Shown: positions 6,077 to 44,779 of the stretch, piece after piece | Position numbering within the stretch: position 1 is the stretch's first letter | Layout of the letters: each line of letters opens with the position of its first letter | Translations under genes and position numbers: made by a program | Notes under the pieces: generated by a model | Told to the model about the DNA's origin: nothing | Seen by the model: the letters and a program-made list of their open reading frames with translations, nothing else | The model's database searches: none | Assembly (NCBI GenBank): GCA_964444705.1 | Contig: CAYUHX010000002.1 | Span: forward strand, 22,869-86,868 | Reading direction: 5' to 3' | Length of the DNA: 64,000 nucleotides | DNA from: an uncultured Gammaproteobacteria bacterium | GTDB lineage: Bacteria; Patescibacteriota; Patescibacteriia; Magasanikbacterales; GWA2-37-8

Positions 6077-6089
6077 CGAAGAGTGGAAA

Positions 6090-7579: not shown

Positions 7580-7592
7580 AGCAGGTGTCTGG

Positions 7593-8318: not shown

Positions 8319-8468
8319 AGAAAAGATTAAAAACAAAGTATGTGTAGAAATAGTATCTCTCGAAATTGAAATTAGTTCAATGTGCGCCTTGATTGCTTGG
8401 GCGGTGGCAGACCCTTCTTTTTTTAGAAAGAAAGGCCTGCGAGGCAGAAACAATCGTTGGAGTAGTGG

Positions 8469-9452
8469 TTATTTTTTGAGTTCAGCGTCAATTGCTTGCT
8501 GAAAATCAGAGAGCGGTCGTGCACCGACGACGAGTTTGCCATTTACAAATGTGGCCGGAGTTCCTTGGACACCTTTCGCTACACCTTCTTGGTAATCTTG
8601 TTGCACTTTAGCAGTGAATTTTCCAGAATCAAGACAGGTGTTAAATGTGGTGGCGTTGAGACCAATTTCTTTCGCCCATTGTTTTAAGGATTCAAAGCTT
8701 AGTGCCTGTTGATTTTCAAACACCTTGTCGTGGAATTCCCAGAATTTGTTTTGCTCACCAGCACATTCAGATGCCTCAGCTGCTTTTATCGCATAGGGAT
8801 GAATTTCGCTTAAAGGAAAATGTTTGTAGACGATACGAACTTTGTTGCCATAGGTGGCGGCAATTTGTTTGAGCGTGGGGTAGTGGCGGCTGCAGTAAGG
8901 ACATTGAAAATCAGAAAACTCAACCAAGGTTACAGGCGCATTAAAGCTGCCGAGGATATGATCTTCTTTGGTAATGGTGAACGATTGTACTGGTGGTGGT
9001 GTGTTCGCGTCAGCACCGCTTGGTTGTGGTTGAGCTTGTGCCTGCCCGTTAGGAATAGCGATGGTGTTTGTGCTTGGTCGACGCAGGAGTACTACCGCGA
9101 GAGTGATGTTGATGATCAGCGAGAGTATGCTGAACGCACTCAAAAAACCAACGAACATAAGAGCGGCGGGTGATAAGCTCCAGATGCCATTGTGGGTTGG
9201 GGTAGAGGAAGGGGTTGACATAGGTGAAGGGGTTGGGTCAATTTTTAATGTTTCGTAGGGGCCCGTTTTATGCACGGTGGTTAGAATTACATTTTCGTTC
9301 ACGATGGTTTCATCGTAAGCAGCGGCACCTTTTTTTGATTCAAAATTTACTTTGGCATTGAGCACGCCAGGAATTTGTTTAAGCATTTTCTCAAGCTGCG
9401 CTGCGCCGGCGAGATCAGCAAGGCCAATGATTTGAAACGTGACTTTTTGCAT
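8469..9452 (-). CDS. DsbA-like oxidoreductase with N-terminal cysteine-less HMA-like domain and TM anchor
   Basis: C-terminal FQCPYCSRHYP active site with KHFPL. The N-terminus MQKVTFQIIGLADLAGAAQLEKMLKQIPGV has an HMA-like fold lacking the CxxC. A central TM helix is present. Confidence 0.65.
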   Translation of the reverse strand: MQKVTFQIIGLADLAGAAQLEKMLKQIPGVLNAKVNFESKKGAAAYDETIVNENVILTTVHKTGPYETLKIDPTPSPMSTPSSTPTHNGIWSLSPAALMFVGFLSAFSILSLIINITLAVVLLRRPSTNTIAIPNGQAQAQPQPSGADANTPPPVQSFTITKEDHILGSFNAPVTLVEFSDFQCPYCSRHYPTLKQIAATYGNKVRIVYKHFPLSEIHPYAIKAAEASECAGEQNKFWEFHDKVFENQQALSFESLKQWAKEIGLNATTFNTCLDSGKFTAKVQQDYQEGVAKGVQGTPATFVNGKLVVGARPLSDFQQAIDAELKK

Positions 9453-9483
9453 AGGCAAAAATAAATAAAAAAATAAATTAATA

Positions 9484-11058
9484 TTATAAGGCTTCAATCA
9501 CTCCGTTATACATTCCCATCGAGCAACTAAATTTGTATTTTCCTGGTCGCGTTACTTCAAATTCCTTCACACTCGTTTCTCCCTGGCGTAAAATTATTTT
9601 ATCGTTAAACAGCTCCCTGGCGATAATGACATTTTCACAGCCGCCGGCTCCTTGATCGGTAATTTCCCAGCGCACTGGTTTTCCAGTACGGATTTTAAAG
9701 TAATTAGGAGAATAGGCTCTCGGTATGGCGTTCATTTTGAGAAGTTGTTTTCCGTTGATGAGTGGAGCAAAGGCAGTGCCATCGTCTGCACGAGTGTGTA
9801 CACCAAAAGATAGATCGTTTAGGCTTGGTAATCCGAGTAGATTAAATTCAGAATTGATGGTGTAAAGAGAAAAAAAGAGTACCACAAATCCGGCAACTAA
9901 AGAAAAATAGCGTGAGAAGCGCGGAGTGGAAGCAAAAGAAATACTGCCAAGACCAATTGTAAGCAGAGTGGGGAGGGTGCCTAGGGCAAAGAAAAACATG
10001 ATGAGCCCACCGTGCCAGGCTGCGCCAGAGATAAGTGCAATTCCTTGAACAATGAGAGTGAAGCCACACGGAAGAAAAAAAGTGGCTGCGCCCAAAAAGA
10101 ATGGCATCAATCGACCAGCAAAATTTTTTTCGTCAGTAAGTTGTGTGGTAAATTTTTTTGGCAAATGAAGTTGTATTTTTTGAAAAAAAGGAATTTCTAA
10201 CATTTGCAACGCAAGCACGATCATTAAGAGTGAAACAAAAATAGTGAGAATAGAAGTGGTGGTAAGAGAAGGTGAAATGAGATTTCCTACTGTTCCAAGA
10301 ATCATTCCACCAAGACCATAAGCGGTGAGACGCCCCGCATTAAAAAGTAGGTGAGGTTGCATCCGGCGAAGACTTGAGACCTCGTTACCGTAGGTGGAAG
10401 ACCACTTTTTTGACAAAGAAAGTACGAGCCCGCCTACCAGAGCCGCGCAGGTAGAAAAACTTGCGATAAGACCAAAGATGGTAAAAGAAAAAAGTGAAGA
10501 GGTGTTCGTGAGGGAAAGTCGTGATGCCAATCCTTGAGTGTTTAACCACAAGAAACTAATAAGAAAGATAAATGCGATACAAAAAGCGCGCCACCATTCT
10601 TTGTCTAAAAAAGGCTGGGTCTTTTTTTGAGAGAGAGAAAAATGATAACCCTCATTTTTAAAAAGAGTATCAAGGGAACTGATTTCTGGTGCCGTGCCCG
10701 AGTGAGTGATGGTAAGCGTGCCGTGTGTAGTTGAGGCCTCAACGAGATGCACTCCCGGCAGAGTTGAGATTTTTTTCTCAAGTATGATTTCACAGGCGGC
10801 GCAGTGGAGGCCGGTGACAAAGTACAGCTGTTGTGCAGTAGCTGCAATCTCCTCTTTTTGGAAAGAAATGTTTTTTTCTCGAAGAAGGGTGAGAACTGAA
10901 TTCTTGGCGGTTTCAGAAGCAAAAGAAACAAAACAGCGATTTTTTTTGGGATTAAAACGTATTTCTTTCACTTCTCCAAGAACAGAGAGTTCGGTTTCAA
11001 GAGAAGTGCTGACCTCGACGGAAAGAGGGGGTTCAAAATGCAAAATAATGTGTGTCAT
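9484..11058 (-). CDS. HMA domain - CcdA/DsbD-like (or TauE-like) transmembrane - C-terminal cupredoxin-like domain protein
   Basis: N-terminal GLHCAACEIIL (HMA MxCxxC). About 8 TM helices with conserved Cys in TM segments (FSTCAAL, FLPCGF). C-terminal beta-rich region ends ...KYKFSCSMGMYNGVIEAL. Confidence 0.6.
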   Translation of the reverse strand: MTHIILHFEPPLSVEVSTSLETELSVLGEVKEIRFNPKKNRCFVSFASETAKNSVLTLLREKNISFQKEEIAATAQQLYFVTGLHCAACEIILEKKISTLPGVHLVEASTTHGTLTITHSGTAPEISSLDTLFKNEGYHFSLSQKKTQPFLDKEWWRAFCIAFIFLISFLWLNTQGLASRLSLTNTSSLFSFTIFGLIASFSTCAALVGGLVLSLSKKWSSTYGNEVSSLRRMQPHLLFNAGRLTAYGLGGMILGTVGNLISPSLTTTSILTIFVSLLMIVLALQMLEIPFFQKIQLHLPKKFTTQLTDEKNFAGRLMPFFLGAATFFLPCGFTLIVQGIALISGAAWHGGLIMFFFALGTLPTLLTIGLGSISFASTPRFSRYFSLVAGFVVLFFSLYTINSEFNLLGLPSLNDLSFGVHTRADDGTAFAPLINGKQLLKMNAIPRAYSPNYFKIRTGKPVRWEITDQGAGGCENVIIARELFNDKIILRQGETSVKEFEVTRPGKYKFSCSMGMYNGVIEAL

Positions 11059-19788: not shown

Positions 19789-20027
19789 GAATCCACTTTA
19801 GAGATGTGCAGAGGATTGGCATGGCAAGACAAAAAAGAGATCGATGTACTTTTTCGTCTTTTCATTCCAAGTCCCTCTCTTGCCTTATAAAGAGGTGTTT
19901 AATTATTTGAAACCCTTATTTAATGTGGTTAGAGAGTGATTATTTCCACCAAAAACCCTTTTAGGGTTTCATTTTGTTTTCTTTAAAAAAATTAGTTTCA
20001 ATCATAATTTCATCCTTCTTTAAAACT

Positions 20028-23000
20028 ATGTCTATGAAGGTACCTATTTTTAAAAAGCAGCCAGTGAAGGGTCGGGAGCGTAAATTTTTTACGCCAGTTA
20101 AAAATTGCCCACTACCCGATTTGATTGAAATTCAAAAAAATTCCTACCAATGGTTTTTGCAATCAGGAGTTAAAGAATTGTTCGAAGAAATTTCGCCGAT
20201 CACTGATTTTACCGGTCGTGATTTAGAGCTATCTCTCGACAGTTATTACCTCGACGAGCCACGTTTCGATGAGGTTACCTGTCGTGATCGCAACATCACC
20301 TACGAAGCCCCGCTCCGTGCGGTTGCTCGTTTGGTAAACAAACGTGACAAACAATCTAAAAGTCAAGAAATTTATTTAGGCGACATTCCGCTCATGACCA
20401 GCCGCGGCACGTTTGTGGTTAATGGTATTGAGCGCGTGGTTGTGTCGCAGTTTATTAGAAGTGCTGGTGCTTTTTTTACCGCTGAATCAGTGCGTGGTCG
20501 TCGTTATTATGGTGCAAAAATAATTCCAAATCGTGGTGCCTGGATTGAAATTGAAACTGATCTTAATAACGTTCTTTGGATTAAAGTTGATCGCAAACGC
20601 AAAGTAGCAGCTACATCGCTTTTGCGTGCGTTTGGTTATGAAGATGACGAAAAATTACTTGAATGTTTTAAAGATGTTGATGTCCACCCAACTATCAACT
20701 ATGCCGAAGCGACCATCAAAAAAGATCTTGCAAAAAACATGGATGAGGGTTTGATCGAAGTCTATAAGAGAATTCGTCCGGGTGATTTGGCAACGGCCGA
20801 CAATGCCAAAAGTTTGATCTACGCCATGTTCTTCAATTTTGATCGTTATGATCTTGGACGCGTTGGTGTGTACAAATTTAATACTAAATTTGATCTTGGT
20901 TACACCGAGGGTGATTATGACAAAAAAGAACACCGAGTACTTTCTGCCGAAAAATTGTTAGCGGTTTTGAAAGAAGTTGTTCGTCTTAATGTTACCCAAG
21001 AAGAACCTGATGATGTTGACCATCTTGGTAACCGCCGCGTGCGTGCGGTGGGTGAACTTGTGCAAAATCGTTTTCGTGTTGGTCTTTCCCGCATGGAACG
21101 CATCATCAAAGATCGCATGAGCACCTATGAGCTCGATCAGTTAACACCAAACAAGCTTATTAACGCCCGCCCAGTCACGAGTGCCATTCGTGAGTTTTTC
21201 ATGAGTTCACAGTTGTCGCAATTCATGGATCAAACTAATCCTTTGGCTGAGCTTGAACACAAACGTCGTTTGAGTGCTCTTGGCCCTGGAGGTCTTGGCC
21301 GTGATCGGGCTGGGTTTGAAGTGCGTGACGTGCATACTACCCATTATGGCAAGGTATGTCCGATTGCGACTCCGGAAGGACCAAATATCGGTCTCGTTAA
21401 CCATCTGGCAAGTTATGCCAAAATTAACGAATTTGGTTTTGTTGAAACAGCCTATCGAAAAATTTTAAAAGAAGTTGCCAATGAGCCACGTTTTACCGAG
21501 GGTGAAATTTTGCGTGGAGATCAAGGTGGTTTTAAAGATGGCACACCCATCACAAAAGATGTGGCTGAAAAATTGGCGAAAGTAAAAGTAGAAAAAATCT
21601 TGGTGAAATCTCGTCTTACTAGTGAAGTGGTGTATCTTAATGCCTTTAAAGAAGAAAAAGTAATCACTGCGGCTGCCAACACACGCACAGATGAGAAAGG
21701 TTATTTCCTTGATGGTACGGTGCCTGCTCGTGTGTACAGCAAACCAGGCGTCGCGCATGTGAACGACTTAGATTATATCGACGCAGCCTCGAATGAAATT
21801 GTGAGTATTGCCACCTCATGTATTCCTTTTCTTGAACATGATGACGCCACACGCGCACTCATGGGAACAAACATGCAGCGTCAGGCGGTGCCTTGTATTC
21901 GTCCGGAGCCGCCACTCGTGGGCACTGGCATGGAAAGAGATGCGGCTCGCTACACCGGTCAAATTGTGATCGCCGATGCTGATGGTGAGATCACCGAATT
22001 TGATGGTAAACACATTGTGCTTACCACTAAAAAAGGTGAAAAATTTGTCTATAATCTAAACAAATTCGTACGCTCCAATGCGTCAACATGTATTAACCAA
22101 CATCCATGTGTGTCACTTGGTCAACAGGTGAAGAAAGGCGATGTGCTGTCAGACGGGCCTTCTATCAGTGATGGTGAGTTGGCACTCGGCCAAAATGTGC
22201 TCGTGGCGTATATGATTTGGGAAGGGTTCAACTATGAAGACGCCATTATTACTTCAGAAAAATTAGTACAACGCGACAGCTTCACTTCTGTACATATTGA
22301 AGATTATACTGTCGACGTGTGTGAAACCAAACTTGGACCAGAAGTAGTCACTGCTGATATTCCGAATGTCAGTGAAGAAAAATTAAAAAATTTAGACAGC
22401 GAAGGCATAATTCGTATCGGTGCCGAAATCAAATCTGGTGATATTTTGGTTGGTAAGATTACGCCAAAAGGTGAAACCGAGCTTAGCGCTGAAGAACGTT
22501 TGCTTCGCGCCATCTTTGGTGAAAAAGCTCGCGATGTACGTGATTCTTCTTTGTATCTTGAGCATGGCGAACACGGTAAAGTAATTGGTGTGCAAGTGTT
22601 TTCTGCCGAAAATGGCGACAAACTTGAACCAGGTGTCATTAAACGTATTCAAGTCACGGTGGCTGATCTCCGTAAGATTCAGGTGGGAGATAAGATGGCA
22701 GGACGCCACGGTAATAAAGGTGTGGTTTCGAAGATTGTTCCGGCTGAAGATTTGCCTTTCCTTGAAGATGGTACCTCCGTGGACATTGTGCTTTCCCCAC
22801 TCGGCGTTATTTCTCGTATGAACTTGGGGCAATTGCTTGAAACTCACCTTGGTCTTGCGGCGAATGCGCTGGGATATAAAGTCGCAACGCCGGTATTAGA
22901 CGGGTTAAACGAAGAGCAAATTAAGAGCGAGCTTGAAAAAGGAGGCTTTCCTCTCAATGGACAAGTGCAGCTTTATGATGGACGTACCGGTGAACCGTTT

Positions 23001-23447
23001 GATCACAAAACGACCATTGGTTACAAATACATGCTCAAACTCAACCACATGGTTGAAGATAAAATTCACCAACGTTCAATTGGTCCATACAGCTTAATTA
23101 CACAGCAACCGCTTGGTGGTAAGGCTCAATTCGGTGGTCAGCGTTTCGGAGAAATGGAAGTGTGGGCACTCCAAGCGTATGGTGCCGCACACACCTTGCA
23201 AGAAATGTTAACGATCAAGTCAGATGACGTACCAGGCCGCTCTAAAGCATATGAGGCTATCATTAAGGGCGAAAAGGTAAGTCGAGTCAACATTCCTGAA
23301 TCATTCAACGTGCTTGTACGCGAATTGAAAGGTTTGTGTCTCGATGTGAGCTTGCTCAAGAAAACAGAATCCGGTCAGTATGTTCCAGCAGAGGATTTGA
23401 AAACCCAAGAAGAACGAACTGCACAAAAAGAAGACATGCCGCTTTAG
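20028..23447 (+). CDS. rpoB: DNA-directed RNA polymerase subunit beta
   Basis: Full-length RpoB with conserved blocks ([48 protein letters not shown]). Start chosen at ATG MSMKVP. The track ORF begins at an upstream TTG. Confidence 0.93.
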
Positions 23448-23483
23448 TCTTATTCTTTTGCAATCTTTGTAACCTTACCTCTT

Positions 23484-26400
23484 ATGCGCGACCAATTACA
23501 TTCCATGGATTTTGACGCCATCCGCGTAACCCTTGCCTCTCCTGAGCGTATCCGAGAAGGATCGCATGGCAAGGTAGAAAAACCAGAGACAATTAACTAC
23601 CGCACGCAGAAGCCAGAAAAAGGCGGTTTGTTTGCGGAAGAAATTTTCGGGCCGATTAAAGATTACGAATGCTATTGTGGTAAATATAAAAAAATTCGTT
23701 ACAAAGGCATTGTGTGTGACAAGTGTGGTGTTGAAGTAACCCACTCATTGGTGCGCCGTGAACGTATGGGTCATATTGAGCTCATTGCGCCAGCTGCCCA
23801 TATTTGGTTTTTGCGTTCGGTGCCGTCTAAGGTTGGTCTGATTCTTGATCTCTCGGCGCAATCTCTTGAGAAAGTCATCTACTTTGCTTCGTTTGTCATT
23901 ATTCATGTTGACGAAGAAACCAAGAAACAAACATTCGACTTGTTGCGTCAGGAATATAAATCAAAAAAGAAACAGCTGGAAAAAGAATTAGCGACATATC
24001 TTGAGACCGCAGGTAAAGAAAAAGAGAAAGGCAAAGACGATGGGGCAGCTGAGTTTGAACGCAAAATAAAAGCGCTTGATTTAGATTTTACTCAAGCCGA
24101 AAAAGAATTGAAAGAACTTCAAGTAATGAAAATTATTTCAGAAAACAAATATCAGGAGCTCTCTCTGCGCTATGGTCATTTGTTTGAAGCATCTATTGGT
24201 GCCGAGGCGGTGTATACTTTGCTTAGTCGAATTAACCTTGAAGAAACAATTAAAAAACTAGAAGACGAGCAAGCCAAAGCTAAAGGGGCTAAATTGGAAA
24301 GAATTATCCGCCGCCGCAAATTATTGCGCAGCTTGCTTTTCACCAAAATTCGTCCGGAATGGATGGTGCTTAAAGTGTTGCCGGTTATTCCTCCAGATTT
24401 GCGCCCAATGGTGGCGTTGGACGGTGGTCGTTTTGCCACATCCGATCTCAACGATTTGTATCGTCGCGTAATTAATCGCAACAATCGCTTGCGTCGCTTG
24501 CTTGAACTTGATGCTCCAGAAGTGATTTGTCGCAATGAAAAAAGAATGTTACAGGAAGCAGTTGATGCGCTCATCGACAACAACGCCCGTCATTCCAAAA
24601 CGGTCACCGCTTCAACCGGTCAAAAAAGACAGTTGCGTTCCTTGGCAGATATTCTTAAAGGTAAACAAGGTCGTTTCCGTCAAAACTTGCTCGGTAAACG
24701 TGTGGACTATTCTGGTCGTTCTGTTATCGTCGTCGGTCCGCAGCTTAATATGGACGAATGTGGTTTGCCGAAACGCATGGCCCTCGAATTATTCAAGCCA
24801 TTCATCATGAGCGAAGTTATTCGTCGTGAGCTGGCACACAATGTGCGCAGTGCGAGCCGCTATATCGAAGCAGGCAGCCCTGAAGTGTGGGATATTTTAG
24901 AAGAGCTTACCAAAAATACGCGCGTCATGTTGAATCGTGCGCCAACGTTGCATCGTTTAGGTATTCAGGCTTTTCATCCACGCTTGATTGAAGGTAAAGC
25001 CATTCAACTTCATCCTTTAACCTGTACTGCTTTTAACGCCGACTTTGATGGTGACCAAATGGCAGTGCATTTGCCACTCACCGACGAAGCGCGTTGGGAA
25101 GCAGAGAACCTCATGGCCGCAGAAAAAAACTTGCTCAAACCGGCAACTGGTAAAGTTGTGGCCACTCCAAAGCAAGACGTAGTGTTTGGTTGTTATTATC
25201 TTACTAAATATCTTCTTCAAGACACCGCGCCAGTGACCAAAATATTCTCTTCTGAAAAAGAAGCTAAATTAGCTTACAAAACTCGCGCGATCACTTTGCA
25301 TCAACGCATCAAAGTGCGGTTCACCAGCATGGAAAAGTTTCCTGAGGGCACCAATCATATTATTGAAACATCTATCGGCCGCGTGCTCTTCAATGAAATC
25401 ATCCCACCGAAATTGCCGTATTATAATGAAGTCATTACGGTTAAAAAACTTGGCAACATTATCTTGCTCTGTCTTGAAATGTATGGCCAAGAATACACCG
25501 CACATTTCTTGGACGAATTAAAAAATCTTGGTTTCCGCTACATTACCAAATCTGGCTTCTCGCTGGGTATGGATGATTTTCCAAAGATTCAGGGAAAACA
25601 AGAATACATTGCTTCAGCCGATTCCAAAATTGTGGAAATGGAACAGCAATATCAAGAAGGTTTGCTCACGCAAGCTGAACGCCATGCTACCATTATTGAA
25701 ATTTGGACCGATGCCAAAAATAAAATTGCCGCTCGTAGTAAAGACTTCCTCGATAAGAATGGTCCAGTGTTCGCGATGATGGATTCTGGTGCGCGTGGTA
25801 GTGAAGCGCAGCTTACCCAAGTTACTGCTATGAAAGGTTTAGTGGTGTCGCCTTCTGGTGATATTATCGAGCTGCCAATCAAGGGTAACTTTAAAGAAGG
25901 TTTCAGTGTACTTGAATTCTTTATCTCTTCCCACGGTACGCGTAAAGGTTTGTCTGATACCGCACTTCGTACCGCGAATGCGGGGTACCTCACCCGTCGT
26001 TTGGTAGATGTGTCGCAAGATGTGGTAGTGGCCGAAGAAGATTGTGGTGACACTGTTGGTGAAATTTTTTCAACCGAGCAATCTAAGGAGATGGGTGAAA
26101 AATTAGCTGATCGCGTGTGGGGTCGCTATGTGGTGGCTGAAGTAAAAGTAGGTAAAGAGGTGATTGTTGAAGTTGGACAGGCTATTGATGATCGCGCTGC
26201 TCGCCGCATTGAAGAACTGGAAGTGTCATCTGTGCATGTACGAAGTGTGCTTCAGTGCCGTCTCTCTAAAACAGTTTGCCGCAGATGTTATGGTTTTGAT
26301 TTGGCACACAATAAGCCCGTTGAGTTTGGAACTGCGGTGGGTGTTATTGCTGCTCAATCAATTGGTGAACCGGGTACACAGCTTACTCTTCGTACGTTCC

Positions 26401-27377
26401 ATTCTGGTGGTGTGGCTGGAGGCGATATTACCCAAGGTTTGCCTCGCGTAGAAGAGTTGTTTGAGCTTCGTACTCCTAAACACCAAGCTTTTTTGGCTAC
26501 GGTTTCCGGCAAAATTGAAATTGAAGACGCTGATGGAAAAATGATTATTGGTCCAACAGGCAAGAAAGTTTTTGAAGGCCGCAGCGGACAAAAAATTGTA
26601 CGCGTGCATTTTGAAGGTATGGATGAAATGACCATGAAGTATAAATCTGAAGATGAAATTCGGGTGAAGGATGGTGAGCGCGTCGCAAAAGATCAGGTAC
26701 TCTTGGTACGCGGCAGTACTGGTGAAGAAATTATGGCCAAGTATAGTGGTCAGGTAAAATTTGCCAAAAATCAAATCAGTTTGGTGTACGAAGGTCCGCG
26801 TGTGCATGAGCATGTAGTGCCGATGGGGTATAAAATCATGGTAAAAAATGGTGATATGGTAGAAAAAGGCGATCGCTTGACTGATGGTAGTATTAACCTC
26901 CAAGAATTACATGAATTAAAAGGACGTGCTGCGGTACAGCGCTATATCTTAGAAGAAGTACAGTCAATTTATTCTTCTCAAGGTCAGAAAGTGAACGACA
27001 AGCATGTAGAACTCATTATTCGTCAAATGTTTAGTCGTGTGTATCTCGAAGATACTGGGGAAACTGAACTTATTCCAGGTGAGGTGGTTGAAAAACATCA
27101 GGTGGAATTGGCCAACAATTTGCTTAAGAAGGCAAGTGCCAAACAGGCTGTTGGGCGCGAACTCCTCCTTGGTATTAGTAAGGTGGCGCTTTCAACACAA
27201 AGCTTCCTCTCGGCGGCATCGTTTCAAGAAACCGCTCGCGTACTTATCAACGCTGCCTCAACCGGTAAGATTGATTATCTCGAGGGCTTGAAAGAAAATG
27301 TGATCATCGGTCGGCTCATTCCAGTGGGCACTGGTTTTAAATCTCCCTTTACCGCTGACGTAGTAAAAAATGGCTAA
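23484..27377 (+). CDS. rpoC: DNA-directed RNA polymerase subunit beta'
   Basis: FDAIRVTLASPE N-terminus, zinc-finger cysteines (CYCGKYKKIRYKGIVCDKCG), catalytic NADFDGDQMAVH, and a 1297-aa length. Confidence 0.93.
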   Translation: MRDQLHSMDFDAIRVTLASPERIREGSHGKVEKPETINYRTQKPEKGGLFAEEIFGPIKDYECYCGKYKKIRYKGIVCDKCGVEVTHSLVRRERMGHIELIAPAAHIWFLRSVPSKVGLILDLSAQSLEKVIYFASFVIIHVDEETKKQTFDLLRQEYKSKKKQLEKELATYLETAGKEKEKGKDDGAAEFERKIKALDLDFTQAEKELKELQVMKIISENKYQELSLRYGHLFEASIGAEAVYTLLSRINLEETIKKLEDEQAKAKGAKLERIIRRRKLLRSLLFTKIRPEWMVLKVLPVIPPDLRPMVALDGGRFATSDLNDLYRRVINRNNRLRRLLELDAPEVICRNEKRMLQEAVDALIDNNARHSKTVTASTGQKRQLRSLADILKGKQGRFRQNLLGKRVDYSGRSVIVVGPQLNMDECGLPKRMALELFKPFIMSEVIRRELAHNVRSASRYIEAGSPEVWDILEELTKNTRVMLNRAPTLHRLGIQAFHPRLIEGKAIQLHPLTCTAFNADFDGDQMAVHLPLTDEARWEAENLMAAEKNLLKPATGKVVATPKQDVVFGCYYLTKYLLQDTAPVTKIFSSEKEAKLAYKTRAITLHQRIKVRFTSMEKFPEGTNHIIETSIGRVLFNEIIPPKLPYYNEVITVKKLGNIILLCLEMYGQEYTAHFLDELKNLGFRYITKSGFSLGMDDFPKIQGKQEYIASADSKIVEMEQQYQEGLLTQAERHATIIEIWTDAKNKIAARSKDFLDKNGPVFAMMDSGARGSEAQLTQVTAMKGLVVSPSGDIIELPIKGNFKEGFSVLEFFISSHGTRKGLSDTALRTANAGYLTRRLVDVSQDVVVAEEDCGDTVGEIFSTEQSKEMGEKLADRVWGRYVVAEVKVGKEVIVEVGQAIDDRAARRIEELEVSSVHVRSVLQCRLSKTVCRRCYGFDLAHNKPVEFGTAVGVIAAQSIGEPGTQLTLRTFHSGGVAGGDITQGLPRVEELFELRTPKHQAFLATVSGKIEIEDADGKMIIGPTGKKVFEGRSGQKIVRVHFEGMDEMTMKYKSEDEIRVKDGERVAKDQVLLVRGSTGEEIMAKYSGQVKFAKNQISLVYEGPRVHEHVVPMGYKIMVKNGDMVEKGDRLTDGSINLQELHELKGRAAVQRYILEEVQSIYSSQGQKVNDKHVELIIRQMFSRVYLEDTGETELIPGEVVEKHQVELANNLLKKASAKQAVGRELLLGISKVALSTQSFLSAASFQETARVLINAASTGKIDYLEGLKENVIIGRLIPVGTGFKSPFTADVVKNG

Positions 27378-36933: not shown

Positions 36934-37311
36934 TTAAGCTTGGGTATTGAGGTAGGCCTTCAACGCATCTTCAAGTCGACTTGTTTGTGGTGAAAAAAGA
37001 CGTATCCCGTTAACTGTAGTCGTTGGTCCTTCCGCGTGTACTTTTTCGTCCATACTTGGCCAGCTGGCGTTATCTTTAATTTGTTTTAATAGATCGGCTG
37101 CGACACTACCATTTAACTCAGGAAGAGGTATGCCCAGATTATCTATGACTGTTTTTAATTTTTCGATTGGATCAAGTGGGGCGAAATCACCGGTTTGAGA
37201 CATTCTTTCGCTCATAGAGTTTAAATTAGAGTAATTAATAGTTAAATTATAGCTTACTTTAGGGAATTTGTGAATATGTGTGTTACATGACAGAAAACAA
37301 AAACCGCCCAC
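36934..37311 (-). CDS. hypothetical protein
   Basis: 125-aa ORF. An internal Met at MSERMSQ may be the true start. No recognisable motif. Confidence 0.35.
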   Translation of the reverse strand: MGGFCFLSCNTHIHKFPKVSYNLTINYSNLNSMSERMSQTGDFAPLDPIEKLKTVIDNLGIPLPELNGSVAADLLKQIKDNASWPSMDEKVHAEGPTTTVNGIRLFSPQTSRLEDALKAYLNTQA

Positions 37312-37402
37312 GTCTCCTGCGCCGAGCGGCGAGAAATCTCGTCGCCACGCGTAGGGGTGTGGGCGGGGTTTGTGCGTGCGGCAACTTGGTGGGCAGCAGC
37401 CT

Positions 37403-38362
37403 CTATGGGGTTACCTCAAAGCGGTCTCGGGTGGTGGTGCCACGATCAAAGAATACTTCCTTGGCTGTAACCTCCACGTTGCCATTCGGCAAAAATTCAA
37501 CTAGCGCATAGCCGTTGAAGGGGTTTTCCCATCCTTCATGGAAGGCCGCACCGCCGTTGCCCACTATCACATCGCGGTAGTGTCCGCGGACGAGCGTATT
37601 CTTCACATGCTCATATTTGTGATCATGGCCGGCGAAGTACAGAGTGATGTTGTGCCGCTGCAGAATAGCTTTAATTTCCGCTTCGATCCACGGAGTGGTT
37701 CCGTGGGAGTCGAAGTACTGATGGCGGAGCACGAACGTGTATTCCGTGGGGATGGCCATCACGGTTTTGAGCCACTTGGCCTGAAGACGATCTTTGTCGC
37801 CCTTCCAGACGTCCGTGGCGATCGAGACGAATTTCGCCCGTCGGCCCTGTTCGTCCTCGATGAGGAACCACCAGTAGTATGGCGCCTCCTCGCCAAGCAT
37901 CCGCATTACCTGGAGACAGGGGAATTCGTGATTGCCGAGCGTGGTATGGATGGGGGCCTTGAGGTGGGCGCGGGCGGCGAGAAGGATGTTGACCTGGGCG
38001 GCGATGGTGTCGGCCGGGCATCCTCGATCAACGTACACTTGGTCGCCGGTGTCCCCAACAACCACCGCCTCATCCTCGTCGATGGCCTTGAAAATCGCTT
38101 CCACGACCTTTGCTGGATAGGAATTGATTTCATTTTTTTTTGGCGGCCGATGATCGCCCGTGATGGCGAACCGCGTCCTTGCTAGCCGTTTGACCTTGAT
38201 GGTCGGCTTTTGATGGAGGGGTGCCATCCCCAGGATGGCCGAGGCAGTGTGGGGCACGATGTCAGTGGCCAGCTGGGTCGCCGTTTCCTGGTTGCAGGCC
38301 GTGAGGCAGCTGAGGATGACGATGATTCCGAAAATTTTCACGTTGCCACTGTTCATACGCAT
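37403..38362 (-). CDS. secreted (lipoprotein) calcineurin-like metallophosphoesterase, GC-rich
   Basis: Signal/lipobox ILSCLTAC. Metallophosphoesterase motifs GDTGDQ, GNHEF and AGHDHKYEH. About 60% GC. A strong terminator hairpin lies 3' of the gene on the minus strand (37304..37365 + TTTTTGTTTTC). Confidence 0.65.
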   Translation of the reverse strand: MRMNSGNVKIFGIIVILSCLTACNQETATQLATDIVPHTASAILGMAPLHQKPTIKVKRLARTRFAITGDHRPPKKNEINSYPAKVVEAIFKAIDEDEAVVVGDTGDQVYVDRGCPADTIAAQVNILLAARAHLKAPIHTTLGNHEFPCLQVMRMLGEEAPYYWWFLIEDEQGRRAKFVSIATDVWKGDKDRLQAKWLKTVMAIPTEYTFVLRHQYFDSHGTTPWIEAEIKAILQRHNITLYFAGHDHKYEHVKNTLVRGHYRDVIVGNGGAAFHEGWENPFNGYALVEFLPNGNVEVTAKEVFFDRGTTTRDRFEVTP

Positions 38363-38550
38363 GGGCTACTCCTGTGCGAGTGGTTTTAAAGGGCGAATGT
38401 TCCCAACTGAGAGGAACAGATGACTCTATCAAATACAAGGCTGTTCAGCAAGTTTTAAATTTAAAAAACCAGATGCAGCCTTTCAACTCAAATTGCATTG
38501 AGACGAAGGGCTAGGGCATCTGGTTTTGTGGCGGAAAGATGTGCTGGACT

Positions 38551-39075
38551 TCAGTTGCAGCCGGCCGGAGTGCAACCACTCGGGCAGTCTTGGGTAGCTG
38601 CGGCGCAGTAGCCTTCGGGCAGGCACTTGCCCGTGGCGTACATCATCACGCCGCCGCCGCTGTAGTTGACGCACTTCTTCACCGTGCCGCTCAGCGAGCA
38701 GCAATCAAGATCGGATCGGCAGGCATTGCACCCTCCGATGACTGCAGTCTCTGGCGGTACGCACAGTTTGGTGCCGTCTTTTTGGGTGTGGCAGTTGGAC
38801 CATCTCCAGCAGCTGGTCACGAAGGGGCACAGCGCCCCTTCCGCCATTCCCTCGCACCGCCGAACCGTGTTCGGTTCGTACGGCCCGGTGCAGAGACCGC
38901 CAAGGTCGATGGTCGGTTGGGACGTCATCAGATCGGCCGGGCTGCCGCCGTCCATGATCGACATGAGGTCGTCGTTGGCAGGGGTGATTCTTGCCATCGA
39001 TCCGTCTGTCGACGGGTTGCAGGCGATGGTGAGAGCAGTCAGTGCTACATAAAGAGACAAACTCGGAGTGCGCAT
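38551..39075 (-). CDS. cysteine-rich secreted lipoprotein, hypothetical, GC-rich
   Basis: MRTPSLSLYVALTALTIAC signal/lipobox. About 20 Cys in about 150 mature residues (CNAC, DCCS, CPSGC). About 63% GC. Confidence 0.5.
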   Translation of the reverse strand: MRTPSLSLYVALTALTIACNPSTDGSMARITPANDDLMSIMDGGSPADLMTSQPTIDLGGLCTGPYEPNTVRRCEGMAEGALCPFVTSCWRWSNCHTQKDGTKLCVPPETAVIGGCNACRSDLDCCSLSGTVKKCVNYSGGGVMMYATGKCLPEGYCAAATQDCPSGCTPAGCN

Positions 39076-39255
39076 TGTGTTCCTTTCGTCGCGCGACGCC
39101 CCTATGGCGCCCGACCCTTTTTCTCGGGTCTAAAAAATGCCTCCCCACACGAGAGACATTGTTTGGATCAGAGATAAGAACGAACGCGTGAATTTAACCC
39201 AAGGAATATCATGAAATACTTAATTAGTCAATTAATATAGGGTGAATATTTCGAT

Positions 39256-40989
39256 TTATTTTTTTTCAGAATTACCACCGTGCGAGCCAGGTGTTCCTTC
39301 ATTGCCGCTTCTTCGGGTGGGAAAAGCCGCTCGTAATTTTGGAACTTCTTTTTTACGAGTAAGTTCGCCCGGAGCTTTTATTTCTCCGGTTTTAAAATAA
39401 TGAACGGCTCGGCCGCGACTTTCCTCATTAAAACCAGTATTAGTAGCATTGGGTTCTAAAAACAGCGCCTGTTTTTCGGGTGGTTCGGAGAAATAGGGTG
39501 CGAGCAGCTCCAGTACTCGTTCTACATTCACTGGTTCGCCGCCGTAATCTTCTAACCCCGCCAGCATTGCTTTGGCTTTTGTTTTAAATTCAGCAAAGCG
39601 TGCAGGTAAACTTCCTCGTACCTCGGCTGAGTCGGTAAAAATAATGGTGAGCGGTTTTCCGAGGCGATCAAGTTGTGAAATTTCTTTTGCCACTTCTTTA
39701 GGAGTAGTAAAAAAACTTTCATCAATTGCTACTAATCCTTTGGTAGAGCGTTCAATTTGCGTGCCCAAGCGTTCCGACCAGTTGGCCACGCCGCCGTCAA
39801 TCGACACATTCAGGCGAGCGAGCGCCAATACCGCGGGTGAAACTGTGGCGGCTGCTCCGGGTTTAGGTTCGGCGCGGGTAAGACGTTGTTGGTCGATTGC
39901 CATTTGCATGCCAAGTTGCTCGGAAAGCAAGGCGCACAGTTCAAGCATGGGGCCAGCCTTGGTGCTGCGGTATGATACAAAGAAAAAATCGAGACCGTTT
40001 TCTTTTAAACGATTGCGCAACTCTTCGCGTAGGCGGGCAACCTTGCCCAAAAATTTTTTGACCACGGCTTGATCGGGAATTGAACGGATATCTGCTGCCA
40101 ATTGTATAATTTCATCAGCCAGCTGTTTCCACGATCCTTTCATTTCGGCTGTGAGTTCTTTAAGAGCAGTCAAACCTTCAGTTGGAGAAAGTGTTTCAGT
40201 TGTAGTTGCGCCCGCTTTTGCTGCTTTCACTTCATCAAAAGTAAAATCATCATCATCATTGAGCACGCGGCCACGGCGAATAAATTCTTGGATAATAGTT
40301 TTTCCTTCTTGTGAGAAAGAGGTAGTGCCATCGGTGGTAATGCGACACGCATTAAGCTTTCTTAGTTTAAGCACTGCATCACTGCCTTGAGTTTTAGCCA
40401 ACTGAGAAAAATAGCCTTCTTTGCCCGGTTTATCGTTGAATTTAGCGAGCTCGGCTTGGGGCCCAAACCATACCATCATAATGGGTTTTTTAGCCGCCTG
40501 CAGGGCCTCCATTTTTTCAATCACCGAATTAAATTCAGCCGGGTTGGTAAAAAATTCAGGTGTAATAAATACGGCCGCATGTGAGCAGGAAGCAATGTCT
40601 GTCGTCGTGCCCACTGCTTCTGCCGAAGTGTGAAAACGATTGCCCAGTTTGGCTGCATTTTTTAATTCGGCATCAAGGCCAGCTTTGAGTTCATTAAAAC
40701 CAACGCGTGCAGACCCCTGTTCGTCGGCAAGGGCGACGCTCGTTTCGTCTAAAGACAGATATAGTCGCGTTGGTCGCCACACCTCTTTATTTTCTCCAAG
40801 GCATACTCTGAGAGCCTCACGTAGCTGTGCCAGGCCACGCAATCGTCTGCTTCTTTCACTGGAATCAAGAAGGGGTGGGGCGTCTTTTAATGCTTCACAT
40901 TTTTGCTGCAAAGCATCAAGTTTTCGATCAATGGCCTCGCGTTGCATTTGTTCGGCCGCCGCCGCACGAGAAGATTCAAAATCGGTCAT
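39256..40989 (-). CDS. protein with two tandem TIR-like domains, each preceded by a coiled-coil segment
   Basis: Internal repeat at aa about 75-180 and aa about 334-456. Unit B: DFFFVSYRS (TIR betaA-like DvFISY) ... GLVAIDESFFTTPKEVAKEI ... KPLTIIFTDSAEV (TIR betaD-like IPIFY.VDPS.V). Unit A: AVFITPEFFTNPAEF ... KPIMMVWFGPQAEL. Confidence 0.5.
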   Translation of the reverse strand: MTDFESSRAAAAEQMQREAIDRKLDALQQKCEALKDAPPLLDSSERSRRLRGLAQLREALRVCLGENKEVWRPTRLYLSLDETSVALADEQGSARVGFNELKAGLDAELKNAAKLGNRFHTSAEAVGTTTDIASCSHAAVFITPEFFTNPAEFNSVIEKMEALQAAKKPIMMVWFGPQAELAKFNDKPGKEGYFSQLAKTQGSDAVLKLRKLNACRITTDGTTSFSQEGKTIIQEFIRRGRVLNDDDDFTFDEVKAAKAGATTTETLSPTEGLTALKELTAEMKGSWKQLADEIIQLAADIRSIPDQAVVKKFLGKVARLREELRNRLKENGLDFFFVSYRSTKAGPMLELCALLSEQLGMQMAIDQQRLTRAEPKPGAAATVSPAVLALARLNVSIDGGVANWSERLGTQIERSTKGLVAIDESFFTTPKEVAKEISQLDRLGKPLTIIFTDSAEVRGSLPARFAEFKTKAKAMLAGLEDYGGEPVNVERVLELLAPYFSEPPEKQALFLEPNATNTGFNEESRGRAVHYFKTGEIKAPGELTRKKEVPKLRAAFPTRRSGNEGTPGSHGGNSEKK

Positions 40990-41224
40990 ACAGGTATAAA
41001 AAATAATTATGGTAGATAGTCAACTACCTTAATACAATCATTCTAAATAATCAATTTGAAAAAACAAAACCCCTATCATTATTGAGAAGGGGTTTCGGAG
41101 CATCAAGTGCTTCTTCAGCCTCTCGTTATTACTACAAAGCGTTTATAGAAATAACGAGTCTGGAGGTTGGAGAGGCGTCGCAGCTCGTCGGTCGTGGACG
41201 GCTGGCCGACCTGGGGCGCTGTCC

Positions 41225-42325
41225 TTAGAGGGCACCGACCCGACGCATAATCTCGATCGCCGCCTTGAGGAGCGCTTCTTCCGTCGCGTTCTGGCGGCGG
41301 TCGTCCAGCCCTTCCTCACCATAAGGACCATGATCCGTCTCGCTCTCAACGTACGCGCTCGCCGCAGGCGTGTGGTCTTCGGGCCAGACGCTGATACCTT
41401 CGAAGCGTTGGTCGCTCCCGAAATCAACCGCCCGGAGCATAAGGACGAGCTCCTCGGCACCGGTTTCCGTCGGGGTGTTATCCATCGCGATGTAGTCGGT
41501 GCTCATGCACCGAACAATCAACGCGGCCCGCTCCCACAGCGACGCAATCTTGGTTGCGGGCGTGTGCTCCGTCACCCGCTCGTAGCGCAGTGGCCTTCCG
41601 CTAAAGTGTGACAGCATCCTCTCGATCATGGTGAGATCGTCCATGGCGTGGTGGAAGAGTACAAGCGGGATCTTGCTCGCCGCGATCTCCGCATCCACCC
41701 GGGTCGCCTCCTTCGCGAGATTGATCTTGTCAGCTCGCACCCCGCCGCGAGTGAGGAGTTTGAAGCCACCGTCCGTTGCTTCCGTATTGATGTTGATACG
41801 ATGCGCATCGGCGTGGGTGGCTGCCAGGTCGGCGGAATCTTTAAGGTTACGTCCCTTGGCGATGCTGATGTAGAACCCCCGTGATGCCCGGGCCGCGACA
41901 TCGTCATATTCCGCTACCTCGTTTCCGAGAAGGAACATGAGACCGTCATTTCCCTCCACCAAGGGCGCTAAGGATGCTGCCCCCCAACACACGTTGGCGA
42001 AGATGCCGAGAACGCTGGGGAATTTTCGGACCAGTCGGGTGAGGTGCGCGGGGACGAGGATGAACGGTTCCCCATCCTCAGTCGTCAGGATGATTTCCGC
42101 TTCATTGCCGTGGCCGATGAAGTGGATGATGTGGGGGCTGAAATCCGTCAGAGCATCGGACAAGGCTTCGAGCGTGCCGTCCGCACAGAAGCGGAATTCA
42201 AACTCGTTCGTTCGTCCAGCCTTTTCAAGGGCGCTGATGATTCTTTCCATCTCCCCCTGGCCCACCTTGTTTGCAGTCTTTGGAATGGCCTCGAACACTA
42301 ATACGCGAATCGGCGGCATGTTCAC
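41225..42325 (-). CDS. CHAT/caspase-like (peptidase C14-fold) domain protein with C-terminal domain of unknown function
   Basis: HIIHFIGHGNE (CHAT HfaGHG motif, His72) and LGIFANVCWGAAS (catalytic Cys113) give the caspase His-Cys dyad spacing. C-terminal 200 aa unassigned. About 62% GC. Confidence 0.55.
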   Translation of the reverse strand: MNMPPIRVLVFEAIPKTANKVGQGEMERIISALEKAGRTNEFEFRFCADGTLEALSDALTDFSPHIIHFIGHGNEAEIILTTEDGEPFILVPAHLTRLVRKFPSVLGIFANVCWGAASLAPLVEGNDGLMFLLGNEVAEYDDVAARASRGFYISIAKGRNLKDSADLAATHADAHRININTEATDGGFKLLTRGGVRADKINLAKEATRVDAEIAASKIPLVLFHHAMDDLTMIERMLSHFSGRPLRYERVTEHTPATKIASLWERAALIVRCMSTDYIAMDNTPTETGAEELVLMLRAVDFGSDQRFEGISVWPEDHTPAASAYVESETDHGPYGEEGLDDRRQNATEEALLKAAIEIMRRVGAL

Positions 42326-42608
42326 CTCTCTGTTGGGATTTCAGAACTGCGGTCTTTGGCGTCCATTACCTGGAGCCTTCCGCAATAGCAACAGGGTTCT
42401 GTATAAACCCTGCTTTTATCGCGAAAGGTGTCAGGCTAGGTTTAGCCCAAGTTCACATTTTTATTTTTAAATTATGAATGAACGGTCGCAGATGTAATCC
42501 ATTCCACATGGCTCATTGATTTTTATGAGCAATCGGGAATGGAGGGGGCCGGCCGGGTGCAGAAGGCACCGGCAGCGAAGAGGCCCCACGTCCATGTGTT
42601 CTTTGTTC

Positions 42609-43652
42609 TTAGGCGGGCTGCGCAGCCGTCGGGGCCGGGCCGGCCCCGACCTGAGCCGTGGACTCGCTCTTGAACCAGGCGCCGGCGTTCGCGAGAAGCG
42701 CCTTCTCGACCAGTTCCACGAGCGCCTTGAGGTCGCTGCCCTCGTCCACCGAGATGGCGAGCGGCTCCAGCACGTTGAGGGTCTGGAGGCAGAGGGCGAG
42801 CCGAAGCTCGTCCTCCGGGCTCTGCCGCGCGGCCGAAGCGACGCCGACCAACCATCCGAGACCCGCGAGCGGCAGCACCGTCTCGAGCACCCCCAGCCCA
42901 CCGTTCAGCCACCAGACGCGGCTGGTGAGCATGGCCAGCTCCTCCTGCTTCTTGCGCAGGTAGGAGAGCTGGCCCTTGTCCACGTCCGTCAGCCTCTCGG
43001 TGACGTAGGTGGCCGGGGTCAGCAGCGCCGTTTTGAGGTTTTTCTCGATGTCAGCCATCTCATCAGAGCTGAGCTTGTCCAGCGCGCAGGTGGGGATGGC
43101 CGCTCCCACCTTGCCGATGAATTCCTCGCGGGTGAGGAGGCTGGCCCTGAACGTGAAGAGGAGGCTCTTGATCTGCTCGGACGCGACCCTGCACAGCTGG
43201 TGCACGCGTCCGTAGCGCGCCACCCCGCCCCGCAGCAGCCCCACCAGAGCAGCCAGTGCTGAAGCGCTGACCGCCGGGTGCCAGGCGTGCCAGGGGATGA
43301 GGTGGAAGCCGCAGGCCGCGATGAGCATGGTGAGAGGCAGGAGCACAATCGCTCGGCGTCGCCAACGCACGGGCTTCTCAAGCGGCGTCAGCCCCACCAC
43401 GAGGGTGAGAAGCAGGGCGCCGATGAGCGTCTCGTTGGGTAGCCAGTTCTTGGTCGCCAAGACGGCCGCCAGCACCACGATGGGCGCCAGCACCTTGACG
43501 AGGCGGTTGAGGCGCTGGGCCATGGCGTCAGCGCGACTCGCAGTCTTGCTGCACTCGCGCTGCTTGGTCGCCGCGTGCCGCAGCGCTTGGACATTGCCAG
43601 TTGTCGGGGTGTACGGTTTCGTCGCAGGAGTCGTCGGGTCGTCCATCTGCAC
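42609..43652 (-). CDS. multi-pass membrane protein (4 N-terminal TM + 1-2 C-terminal TM), hypothetical effector
   Basis: Hydrophobic helices LVKVLAPIVVLAAVLA, LIGALLLTLVVGL, AIVLLPLTMLIAACGF and WWLNGGLGVLETVLPLAGLGWLVGVASAA. About 65% GC. An AT-rich promoter region lies upstream. Confidence 0.45.
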   Translation of the reverse strand: MQMDDPTTPATKPYTPTTGNVQALRHAATKQRECSKTASRADAMAQRLNRLVKVLAPIVVLAAVLATKNWLPNETLIGALLLTLVVGLTPLEKPVRWRRRAIVLLPLTMLIAACGFHLIPWHAWHPAVSASALAALVGLLRGGVARYGRVHQLCRVASEQIKSLLFTFRASLLTREEFIGKVGAAIPTCALDKLSSDEMADIEKNLKTALLTPATYVTERLTDVDKGQLSYLRKKQEELAMLTSRVWWLNGGLGVLETVLPLAGLGWLVGVASAARQSPEDELRLALCLQTLNVLEPLAISVDEGSDLKALVELVEKALLANAGAWFKSESTAQVGAGPAPTAAQPA

Positions 43653-43870
43653 CTCTTTCAGGGGTGTGGGGTTACAGGAAAAACAAATCTCTAAATAACC
43701 ATCTTATAAAGAAACACATGGATTGTAATGAGCAAAATCAGTAGGAATCTGAAAATGATGTACTACCAAACCTTTTTCAAATTCTTAAGCTGAATTTTAA
43801 GTGAGAGAGAGTTTTTAGAGAAGAAAAATTAAGTGAATGAAGAAGAAAAAAATTGAAAATTTCTGGGGGG

Positions 43871-43916
43871 CCTGATCGCCGTCGTCTGCGCGTGGGGCAG
43901 GGCGACGGCGATCAGG
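43871..43916. terminator. 14-bp perfect inverted repeat hairpin (terminator between convergent or adjacent island genes)
   Basis: cctgatcgccgtcg-tctgcgcgtggggcaggg-cgacggcgatcagg. Confidence 0.45.
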
Positions 43917-43958
43917 TGGTCTTCTGTACGCGCACGGGGGTGAGATGAGGTAGCGGGC

Positions 43959-44441
43959 CTAGCCGCCGCGGATGCTACCGTCGCGGAGCTGATCGTCCTC
44001 GTCGCGCGAGGGGCGGCCGTTCAGTGGCTCGTCGATGCAGCGCAGGTGCTCGTCCCGGCAGCGGTGGCTGTTGTCCAGCTCGAGGAGCTTGCTCAGCTCG
44101 ATCGCCGGGAAGCTGGACGTCCAGCTCAGCCGCCAGCCGTTGCTGTGCCAGGCGGCGACCACCGCCTTCTCCACCTCGGGGTGGCTCATCAGCTCGATGA
44201 GCTGCTGCGCCTTGTCCCGGTGCAGGTCACCGCCGAGGCCGATGAACATCGACCCTCGGTCCTGGTCCTCCATCTGCATGAAGAAGGTGATGAGCGGGTT
44301 GGCCCGCCGCACCATCTCCTGCACCTCGTGGGCGGTCAGGGGCCGCGGCTTGGGCCGGTGCGCGTCGGGGATGCCGTCCCCGTTCGCGTCGGGGAAGGTG
44401 CTGCCCGGTGAAGTTGTTTCACGATCAGGGTTCCAAGGCAT
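43959..44441 (-). CDS. GC-rich hypothetical protein with DGDGIPD (thrombospondin type-3-like Ca-binding) motif
   Basis: Start chosen at MPWNPD with GGAGGA SD 6 nt upstream. The track ORF extends to 44543. About 65% GC. Confidence 0.4.
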   Translation of the reverse strand: MPWNPDRETTSPGSTFPDANGDGIPDAHRPKPRPLTAHEVQEMVRRANPLITFFMQMEDQDRGSMFIGLGGDLHRDKAQQLIELMSHPEVEKAVVAAWHSNGWRLSWTSSFPAIELSKLLELDNSHRCRDEHLRCIDEPLNGRPSRDEDDQLRDGSIRGG

Positions 44442-44779
44442 GGGTCGTCCTCCAACAGTGCATCGCCGTGGTTTCTCACAACACAAACGCTTGTGGGCGC
44501 TGTGTTCCCTATCGCCGGCGTGCGACAAGGGTAATAAACTCAAAAAAATGTAAGTTTAGTATCCTTGCCACATTTTCGGCGACACTGCGTACAAAAGAGT
44601 TATTTTTGGCTAATTTATCTGTAGTGGATAAAAAAGACACGAAAATAACTATTCATTATAGCATATTTTTACTCGTTTGTCAACGGAACCATGCGGACAA
44701 AATTTTTATATCCTGCACCATTGAATAGTTTAAAAATTATGCTATAGTGGCTAAGTATATACTTATTTTATCTTAATAT

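Follow-up and report, generated by a model that had tools for sequence, protein, structure and literature searches.

The 64,000-nt stretch of contig CAYUHX010000002.1 analysed here (the window; coordinates are window positions unless a second contig, L001, is named) contains, at 39256..40989 on the minus strand, an open reading frame (ORF) for a 577-aa protein, P0001, in which a module made of a ~60-residue helical hairpin and an alpha/beta domain occurs twice. The narrow structural claim that P0001 is a tandem duplicate whose second copy (unit B) is TIR-like is likely to be right, and the first copy (unit A) is probably a decayed TIR-derived copy, or pseudo-TIR. As immune enzymes, TIR domains have a central place in bacteria, plants and animals, and an active site requires two TIRs together; a live and a decayed TIR in one chain would be a compact model of how TIR–TIR asymmetry controls catalysis.

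An old duplication within one chain

The original prediction for this gene, made from the DNA letters, had proposed an internal duplication. This duplication is real but old, and the similarity of the two copies exceeds chance, modestly, in BLASTP, Smith-Waterman, hhalign and MAFFT comparisons. BLASTP aligns residues 1–290 with residues 291–577 at 26% identity over 158 collinear columns, and Smith-Waterman comparison of one half with the other gives z 4.2–5.1, a score reached by 0–1 of 1000 shuffles. The peptides that had been quoted as aligning are located where they had been placed, AVFITPEFF...KPIMMVWFGPQAEL at residues 139–181 and LVAIDESFF...KPLTIIFTDSAEV at residues 419–457, and the quoted DFFFVSYRS lies at residues 334–342.

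A full phmmer scan of 1.84 billion representative proteins identified one genuine full-length homolog, P0003 (611 aa), which aligns with P0001 end to end at 43% identity and has the same two-unit layout. It is encoded on L001, a 15-kb contig of a metagenome-assembled genome labelled 'uncultured Gammaproteobacteria'. With the two units of this sole ortholog added, a four-unit MAFFT alignment extends collinearly from the helices at the N-terminus through the C-terminal helix; an FF pair (F146/F147 in unit A, F426/F427 in unit B) is invariant in it, as is the 'KP' Pro. An hhalign profile–profile comparison of the two unit-A orthologs with the two unit-B orthologs gives P 8e-4 across the betaC-alphaC-betaD core. 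Identity is 42–49% for A–A and B–B but 14–23% for A–B, so the duplication is older than the split between P0001 and P0003. The C-terminus of P0003 (L001 2500-2660) is an RGG-rich tail (GGRGGGRGGRGGGTRGL) that is not present in P0001.

The third phmmer hit, a 3875-aa repeat protein (P0004), was rejected because its similarity consists of twelve weak repeat matches. A word-indexed search of 5.8 billion proteins, with P0001 or the two-sequence profile as query, returned nothing but the query, and no further family members were found in metagenome scans, viral scans, or tblastn searches of plasmids and phages. In the collections searched, the family numbers two proteins.

In the AlphaFold model two long helices precede each unit (Table 1), and the hairpins of units A and B align with each other (L..LRE.L...L.EN). 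Each unit had been predicted to follow a coiled coil. The helices are present before both. In a test against shuffles, those of unit B show significant heptad periodicity (p 0.005 and 0.03), and those of unit A do not (p 0.25 and 0.22). Because of this difference, 'helical hairpin' is the safer term.

Two units of unequal likeness to TIR domains

The predicted fold of P0001 is a TIR-type flavodoxin-like fold whose nearest solved structures are TIR domains. A single-sequence AlphaFold model was poor, with a predicted local distance difference test (pLDDT) score of 42; with the ortholog added, pLDDT was 78–89 for residues 410–535, 40–66 for residues 331–410 and ~50 for unit A. A Foldseek search of this model against the PDB placed plant TIR domains on top (L6, SNC1, RPS4, RPP1 and RUN1; probability 1.0, TM score 0.45–0.58 on the target). 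Given the pLDDT values and the sequence evidence, we assign these matches to unit B.

When unit B was scanned alone, the Pfam TIR_2 profile matched it in both orthologs (E 0.02 and 0.07–0.11; profile region 36–86 of 122). For targeted comparisons, real TIR sequences were taken from PDB alignments. With an ad-hoc TIR hidden Markov model (HMM) and with hhalign against six real TIR sequences, the alphaB-to-alphaD part of unit B aligned in the register expected. The hhalign P value is lowest for the four-unit core (0.0031), followed by unit B (0.021), and highest for unit A (0.12). The motifs of unit B include DFFFVSY in betaA, LVAID-ESFF in betaC, PKEVAKEISQL in alphaC and PLTIIFTD in betaD, followed by an alphaD region that is plant-TIR-like ('D-SAEVR...F.EF'). 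In both the HMM and the hhalign alignments, Glu436 (KEISQL; REVSQM in P0003) falls on the catalytic Glu of L7, RUN1, AbTir and PdTIR, an assignment that comes from alignment only. Two other candidates picked by eye, Glu152 and Glu432, are Gln in P0003. On these grounds unit B is probably a very diverged but essentially complete TIR domain, and probably a catalytic one.

Several results weigh against this identification. Full-length P0001 has no TIR match at curated thresholds in Pfam, PADLOC or NCBIfam, and a PDB-sequence search returned nothing significant; the TIR_2 scores of unit B, at 13.5–15.8 bits, are well below the gathering cutoff of 28. Four residues before E436, at the position of W204 in AbTir, which is informative for cyclase activity (bioRxiv 10.1101/2022.05.07.491051), P0001 has Glu and its ortholog Gln. 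The AlphaFold model is built on a two-sequence alignment and has a mean pLDDT of 52, with the N-terminal half of unit B among its weaker parts, and in the fold-search output the TIR matches are not assigned to either unit. PDB sequences were also searched with profiles built from all four units, from the unit-B and unit-A sequences separately and from a 68-residue core; no TIR was among the matches, the best of which were at chance level. When three plant TIRs were the only sequences compared, the hhalign result for unit B was not significant.

The moderate confidence of the model and the lack of a significant TIR profile would also fit a protein that is not a TIR, namely another flavodoxin-like nucleotide binder of the TIR/DRHyd/SLOG assemblage, 2-deoxyribosyltransferase-like or SLOG-like, which would receive a nucleotide signal and not generate it. 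The original prediction had named a better fit to such a family as the result that would overturn it, and no structural or profile match to nucleoside 2-deoxyribosyltransferase, SLOG or DRHyd was better than that to TIR. The sole family-level sequence signal is TIR_2, and it appears in two orthologs; in addition, real TIR sequences align with the betaC '(S/T/D)-x-x-F-F' motif, with the Glu of alphaC and with the motifs of betaD/alphaD. We therefore regard the non-TIR explanation as quite unlikely, and retain a diverged TIR as the probable identity of unit B. If this is right, TIR-like proteins can lie under every current profile threshold, here in a family with two known members.

Unit A presents a different picture. 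Alone, it has no TIR match in Pfam or PDB profiles, as was also the case in the hhalign comparison above, and it is tied to unit B only via the internal duplication. It retains the betaC motif '(T)PEFF' and the betaD segment 'KPIMMVW', and the four-unit alignment and the AlphaFold model both indicate that it is without the ~20 residues corresponding to alphaA/betaB. At the position of the catalytic Glu it has Val156, which is invariant in both orthologs. It is this invariant Val, together with the loss of the alphaA/betaB segment, that leads us to describe unit A as a pseudo-TIR. A tandem pair of TIR-like domains, each with a catalytic Glu to be looked for, had been predicted. The duplicated hairpin and alpha/beta module was borne out, as were the sub-threshold TIR_2 signal of unit B in both orthologs and a Glu in that unit; since unit A is without TIR signal, alphaA/betaB or Glu, two equivalent TIRs are unlikely, and a pseudo-TIR followed by a TIR is the better description.

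A coiled coil followed by a TIR (CC-TIR) is a known bacterial architecture, found in AbTir, BtTir and AaTir (bioRxiv 10.1101/2022.05.07.491051). Each module of P0001 resembles the bacterial CC-TIRs (AbTir, BtTir, TcpB/BtpA and PdTIR) in having a helical or coiled-coil segment and then a TIR-type domain, and it shares with PdTIR a betaC '...S-T-x-F-(F/I)' motif and an alphaC Glu in register (PdTIR VVLSTHFFKKEWPQKELDGL vs LVAIDESFFTTPKEVAKEISQL). Unlike these proteins, P0001 has the module duplicated in one chain, the first copy being without the Glu and alphaA/betaB; its similarity lies under every profile threshold, and the residue four positions before the Glu is not Trp. From the plant TIRs (RPP1, RPS4, L6/L7 and RUN1) it differs in its low identity of 9–15% and in the absence of NB-ARC/LRR context. 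Two diverged TIRs in tandem in one polypeptide also occur in the mollusc Toll-2 family and in Dictyostelium TirE, both TIR domains of the latter having escaped Pfam HMMs (PMC4929906; bioRxiv 10.64898/2026.04.30.722052). Those, unlike P0001, are eukaryotic receptors or RCC1-repeat proteins with no hairpin before each TIR, and no sequence relationship of P0001 to either was detected. Tandem TIRs are thus already known in eukaryotes, and the bacterial hairpin–TIR duplicate is apparently undescribed: a literature search limited to a few phrases found no bacterial protein with a (helical hairpin-TIR)x2 layout.

A CHAT protease gene in both loci and a possible function

In both known loci a CHAT protease gene adjoins the tandem-TIR gene. 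In the window it is the upstream neighbour, o366, which matches the CHAT protein of PDB entry 8tl0_A (E 9.3e-7) with its His72 (HFIGHG) and Cys113 (ANVCW) motifs aligned, and Pfam CHAT with E 0.003–0.006; its CHAT relatives are found on actinobacterial and cyanobacterial plasmids. The C-terminal ~170 aa of o366 (41225-41740, minus strand) match nothing in Pfam, in NCBIfam, among PDB sequences or on plasmids, and a TIR-like domain there was considered and found to be unsupported (hhalign P 0.16). On L001 the downstream neighbour of the P0003 gene encodes a protein with EAD1 above the Pfam threshold, and the N-terminal half of the same protein scores 17.2 bits with the CHAT HMM, as against at most 3.9 in 500 shuffles.

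The presence of a tandem TIR-like gene beside a CHAT gene suggests a possible TIR-to-caspase immune pair. A TIR and a caspase-like protease form an experimentally established functional pair in type IV Thoeris, and the window, compared with that system by description, likewise has a TIR-like gene adjoining a gene for a caspase-family (CHAT) protease. The layout of o366, an N-terminal protease with a C-terminal domain, also parallels the type IV effector with its proposed signal binder. Unlike type IV Thoeris, the TIR-like protein here is long and tandem and not a short single-domain TIR of the ThsB type; a 235-bp spacer with a terminator-like hairpin stands between the two genes, which do not form a two-gene operon; and the L001 protease bears EAD1 in place of a C-terminal domain without known function. 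PADLOC and NCBIfam gave no match to P0001. SLATT proteins are pore-type effectors of cyclic oligonucleotide-based antiphage signalling systems (CBASS) and of type VII Thoeris. For comparison with the latter, the window has a membrane protein, o347, encoded two genes away from P0001, whose SLATT hits are sub-threshold. In type VII Thoeris a TIR protein is coupled to a SLATT effector via cyclic ADP-ribose (10.64898/2025.12.03.692087).

We propose, tentatively and as somewhat less than an even prospect, that P0001 is a Thoeris-like generator of a signal derived from nicotinamide adenine dinucleotide (NAD+), or an NADase, working with the neighbouring protease. Two TIR domains contribute to each TIR active site, which depends on the catalytic Glu (bioRxiv 10.1101/2022.05.07.491051). 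As the NADase site needs two TIRs head-to-tail, unit A, as a dead TIR, could be a built-in partner, regulator or sensor surface for a live unit B, and the helical hairpins could drive further self-association. Once activated, unit B would cleave NAD+, leading to depletion or to an ADP-ribose-derived signal, and the executioner would be the adjacent CHAT caspase-like protease, possibly also the SLATT-like membrane protein. Such a scheme would parallel both type IV (TIR + caspase-like) and type VII (TIR + SLATT) Thoeris. The analysis shows the duplication, the predicted TIR-like fold, a conserved Glu in unit B with Val in unit A, and the adjoining CHAT gene of both loci; the catalysis, the pseudo-enzyme role of unit A, the signalling to the protease and the role in defence we infer. 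If the link to CHAT proteases holds, the recently discovered TIR-to-caspase signalling of type IV Thoeris would extend to a very different TIR architecture.

A number of observations speak against a functional pair. The conserved neighbourhood rests on two loci, in which the gene order is opposite and the two CHAT genes are non-orthologous, and the GC content at third codon positions (GC3) of these CHAT genes is 0.72–0.87 vs 0.39–0.40 for the tandem-TIR genes. There is no tight operon, the spacers overall being 180–630 bp and that between the tandem-TIR and CHAT genes 235 bp in the window and 630 bp on L001. The hairpin between the o366 and P0001 genes (Table 1) is strong, with 0 of 200 shuffles as stable, and together with its U-run it suggests that the two genes are in separate transcription units. 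The matches of o347 to SLATT_1 (E 0.0075; 16.2 bits, cutoff 41) and SLATT_3 (E 0.76) in NCBIfam are both sub-threshold.

Many of these observations would be expected if P0001 were a lineage-specific protein whose neighbours mark a hot spot of foreign-DNA integration beside a resident gene. The gene is located in a ~7-kb stretch, at about 37.3–44.6 kb, between rpe and ileS. Its codon usage is host-like (GC3 0.39, as compared with 0.38 for rpoB and 0.45 for ileS), and every flanking gene of the stretch is strongly GC3-rich, at 0.71–0.88; on L001 the corresponding values are 0.40 for the P0003 gene, 0.46 for uvrA and 0.87–0.95 for the neighbours. The terminator, the long spacers, and the fact that, CHAT aside, no flanking gene is common to the two loci (a counterpart of o347 is missing from L001) fit mere adjacency as well. 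Against it, of all possible foreign genes it is a CHAT protease gene that directly adjoins in both loci, and TIR and caspase-like proteins are, as noted above, an established pair. We consider mere adjacency rather unlikely, and less probable than the proposed work of P0001 with the protease.

Much the same probability, again on the unlikely side, attaches to P0001 as a non-enzymatic TIR scaffold or adaptor, in which both units are inert and TIR–TIR and hairpin contacts nucleate or hold effectors such as CHAT proteases, as in animal MyD88/MAL assemblies or according to the adaptor logic of EADs in bacterial conflict systems. Unit A is clearly without a catalytic Glu, the match of unit B to enzymatic TIR profiles is sub-threshold, no aromatic residue stands four positions before E436, and the EAD1 adaptor domain of the L001 CHAT neighbour shows that coupling of the adaptor type does occur in such a setting (PMC7159879). 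Against an inert scaffold stand the retention of E436, which occupies the catalytic position in the second alphaC turn, across orthologs that are 43% identical, and the enzymatic TIRs (RPP1, RPS4, TIR-1 and SARM1) as the top structural matches; moreover, searches of P0001 and P0003 revealed neither EAD1 nor another adaptor domain, and no likeness to TIR was detected in the C-terminal domain of o366.

The L001 neighbour, a caspase-like peptidase with EAD1, has the typical effector architecture of the EAD-coupled caspase conflict systems known from multicellular bacteria (PMC7159879), and the foreign flanks recall the fast-varying effector modules of those systems (Kaur, Burroughs, Iyer and Aravind 2020). 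Unlike in those systems, neither an NTPase core (STAND, MoxR-vWA or GTPase) nor a second EAD1 was found in either locus, and the window CHAT protein o366 is without an EAD.

A secreted or host-directed CC-TIR virulence effector acting on eukaryotic TIR signalling or NAD+ (cf. TcpB/BtpA, TcpC, TirS and PdTIR) seems very unlikely. It would suit the coiled coil plus TIR architecture of the bacterial Tcp proteins, the plant-like or eukaryote-like character of the nearest structural matches and of the alphaD motif 'D-S-x-V-R...F..F', the disordered C-terminal tails (RGG-rich in the ortholog), and the host-like codon usage of a gene with no recognisable defence operon around it. As far as can be read from the sequence by eye, P0001 has no signal peptide or transmembrane segment and would be cytoplasmic; the window ORFs scanned, which are part of the total, include no secretion-system genes; the likeness to Tcp proteins is limited to generic TIR motifs; and the CHAT adjacency in both loci better suits an intracellular conflict system. 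Taken together, the non-TIR, mere-adjacency, scaffold and host-directed readings retain considerable weight.

A more specific version of the signal-generator proposal is improbable. It holds that a resident covalent pseudo-TIR/TIR pair, with the dead TIR completing or gating a composite NAD+ site, is a fixed signal generator with swappable, imported executioners. If true, unrelated GC-rich effectors, namely a SLATT-like pore and CHAT proteases whose C-terminal coupling domains differ, would have been imported repeatedly into one slot, and P0001 would be a bacterial precedent, in one chain, for enzyme/pseudo-enzyme TIR heterodimers like plant RPS4/RRS1.

Features of the gene and its surroundings

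Table 1. Positions in the window of the P0001 gene, its parts and its upstream neighbours.
Feature	Position	Strand	Details
P0001 gene (tandem TIR-like)	39256..40989	-	577 aa; GC3 0.39, host-like
Unit A N-terminal helical hairpin, residues 2-66	40792..40986	-	AlphaFold helices 2-35, 43-66
Unit A degenerate TIR-like alpha/beta domain, residues 67-245	40255..40791	-	duplication alignments and AlphaFold model
Val156 codon, unit A residue aligned with the TIR catalytic Glu position	40522..40524	-	alignments including the ortholog
Inter-unit linker, acidic, probably disordered, residues 246-268	40186..40254	-	pLDDT 24-30
Unit B N-terminal helical hairpin, coiled-coil-like, residues 269-330	40000..40185	-	AlphaFold helices 269-302, 307-329; heptad test
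Unit B TIR-like domain, residues 331-539	39373..39999	-	
Glu436 codon, unit B candidate catalytic glutamate	39682..39684	-	Glu also in P0003 (REVSQ)
C-terminal tail, basic/Gly-rich, low-confidence, residues 540-577	39259..39372	-	AlphaFold model and ortholog comparison
Intrinsic-terminator-like hairpin and U-run between the o366 and P0001 genes	41059..41097	-	-17.1 kcal/mol, z -3.7
CHAT caspase-like protease with C-terminal domain (o366, 366 aa)	41225..42325	-	GC3 0.72; upstream neighbour
Multi-pass membrane protein (o347, 347 aa)	42609..43652	-	GC3 0.88; weak SLATT/DUF4231

The hydrophobic segments of o347 are probably membrane-spanning, as judged by eye from the sequence, and its Pfam DUF4231 match is sub-threshold (E 0.011–0.088; 13.7–16.6 bits vs a cutoff of 24.7); the protein may or may not be part of the system. 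Downstream of the P0001 gene, and likewise GC3-rich, are a gene at 38551-39075 (minus strand) for a 174-aa Cys-rich protein with a lipobox-like N-terminus and one at 37403-38362 (minus strand) for a calcineurin-like metallophosphoesterase (Pfam E 2.7e-12) with a lipoprotein-type N-terminus. The rpoB used for the codon-usage comparison is one of two adjacent ORFs of 1157 aa and 1297 aa at 19974-27377, which were taken as rpoB and rpoC by size and position only. RecA scores about equally against PDB chains taken, from their codes, to be Mycobacterium and E. coli RecA, and so offers no taxonomic lead; the tRNA is the sole Rfam match.

In both loci AT-rich spacers separate the GC3-rich flanking genes (window 37300-44600; L001 1-4400). 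With the exception of the weakly related CHAT halves, the flanks are non-homologous between the loci, which looks like repeated import of foreign genes beside a resident gene. The idea that the island holds shared repeats or a cassette array of the integron type was rejected, as no repeat family was found. Perfect sigma-70 promoters with an extended -10 (TTGACA-17-TG-TATAAT) stand before GC3-rich genes at 44655-44683 (minus strand) and at L001 2765-2793 (plus strand); a promoter cassette common to both loci was rejected, since only the consensus hexamers match and their surroundings are not alignable. On L001, uvrA (5631-8465) and uvrC (8586-10211) contain in-frame insertions resembling translated repeat elements; in UvrC, for example, a '(V)IARS(E/D)ERTTKQS...' segment occurs twice.

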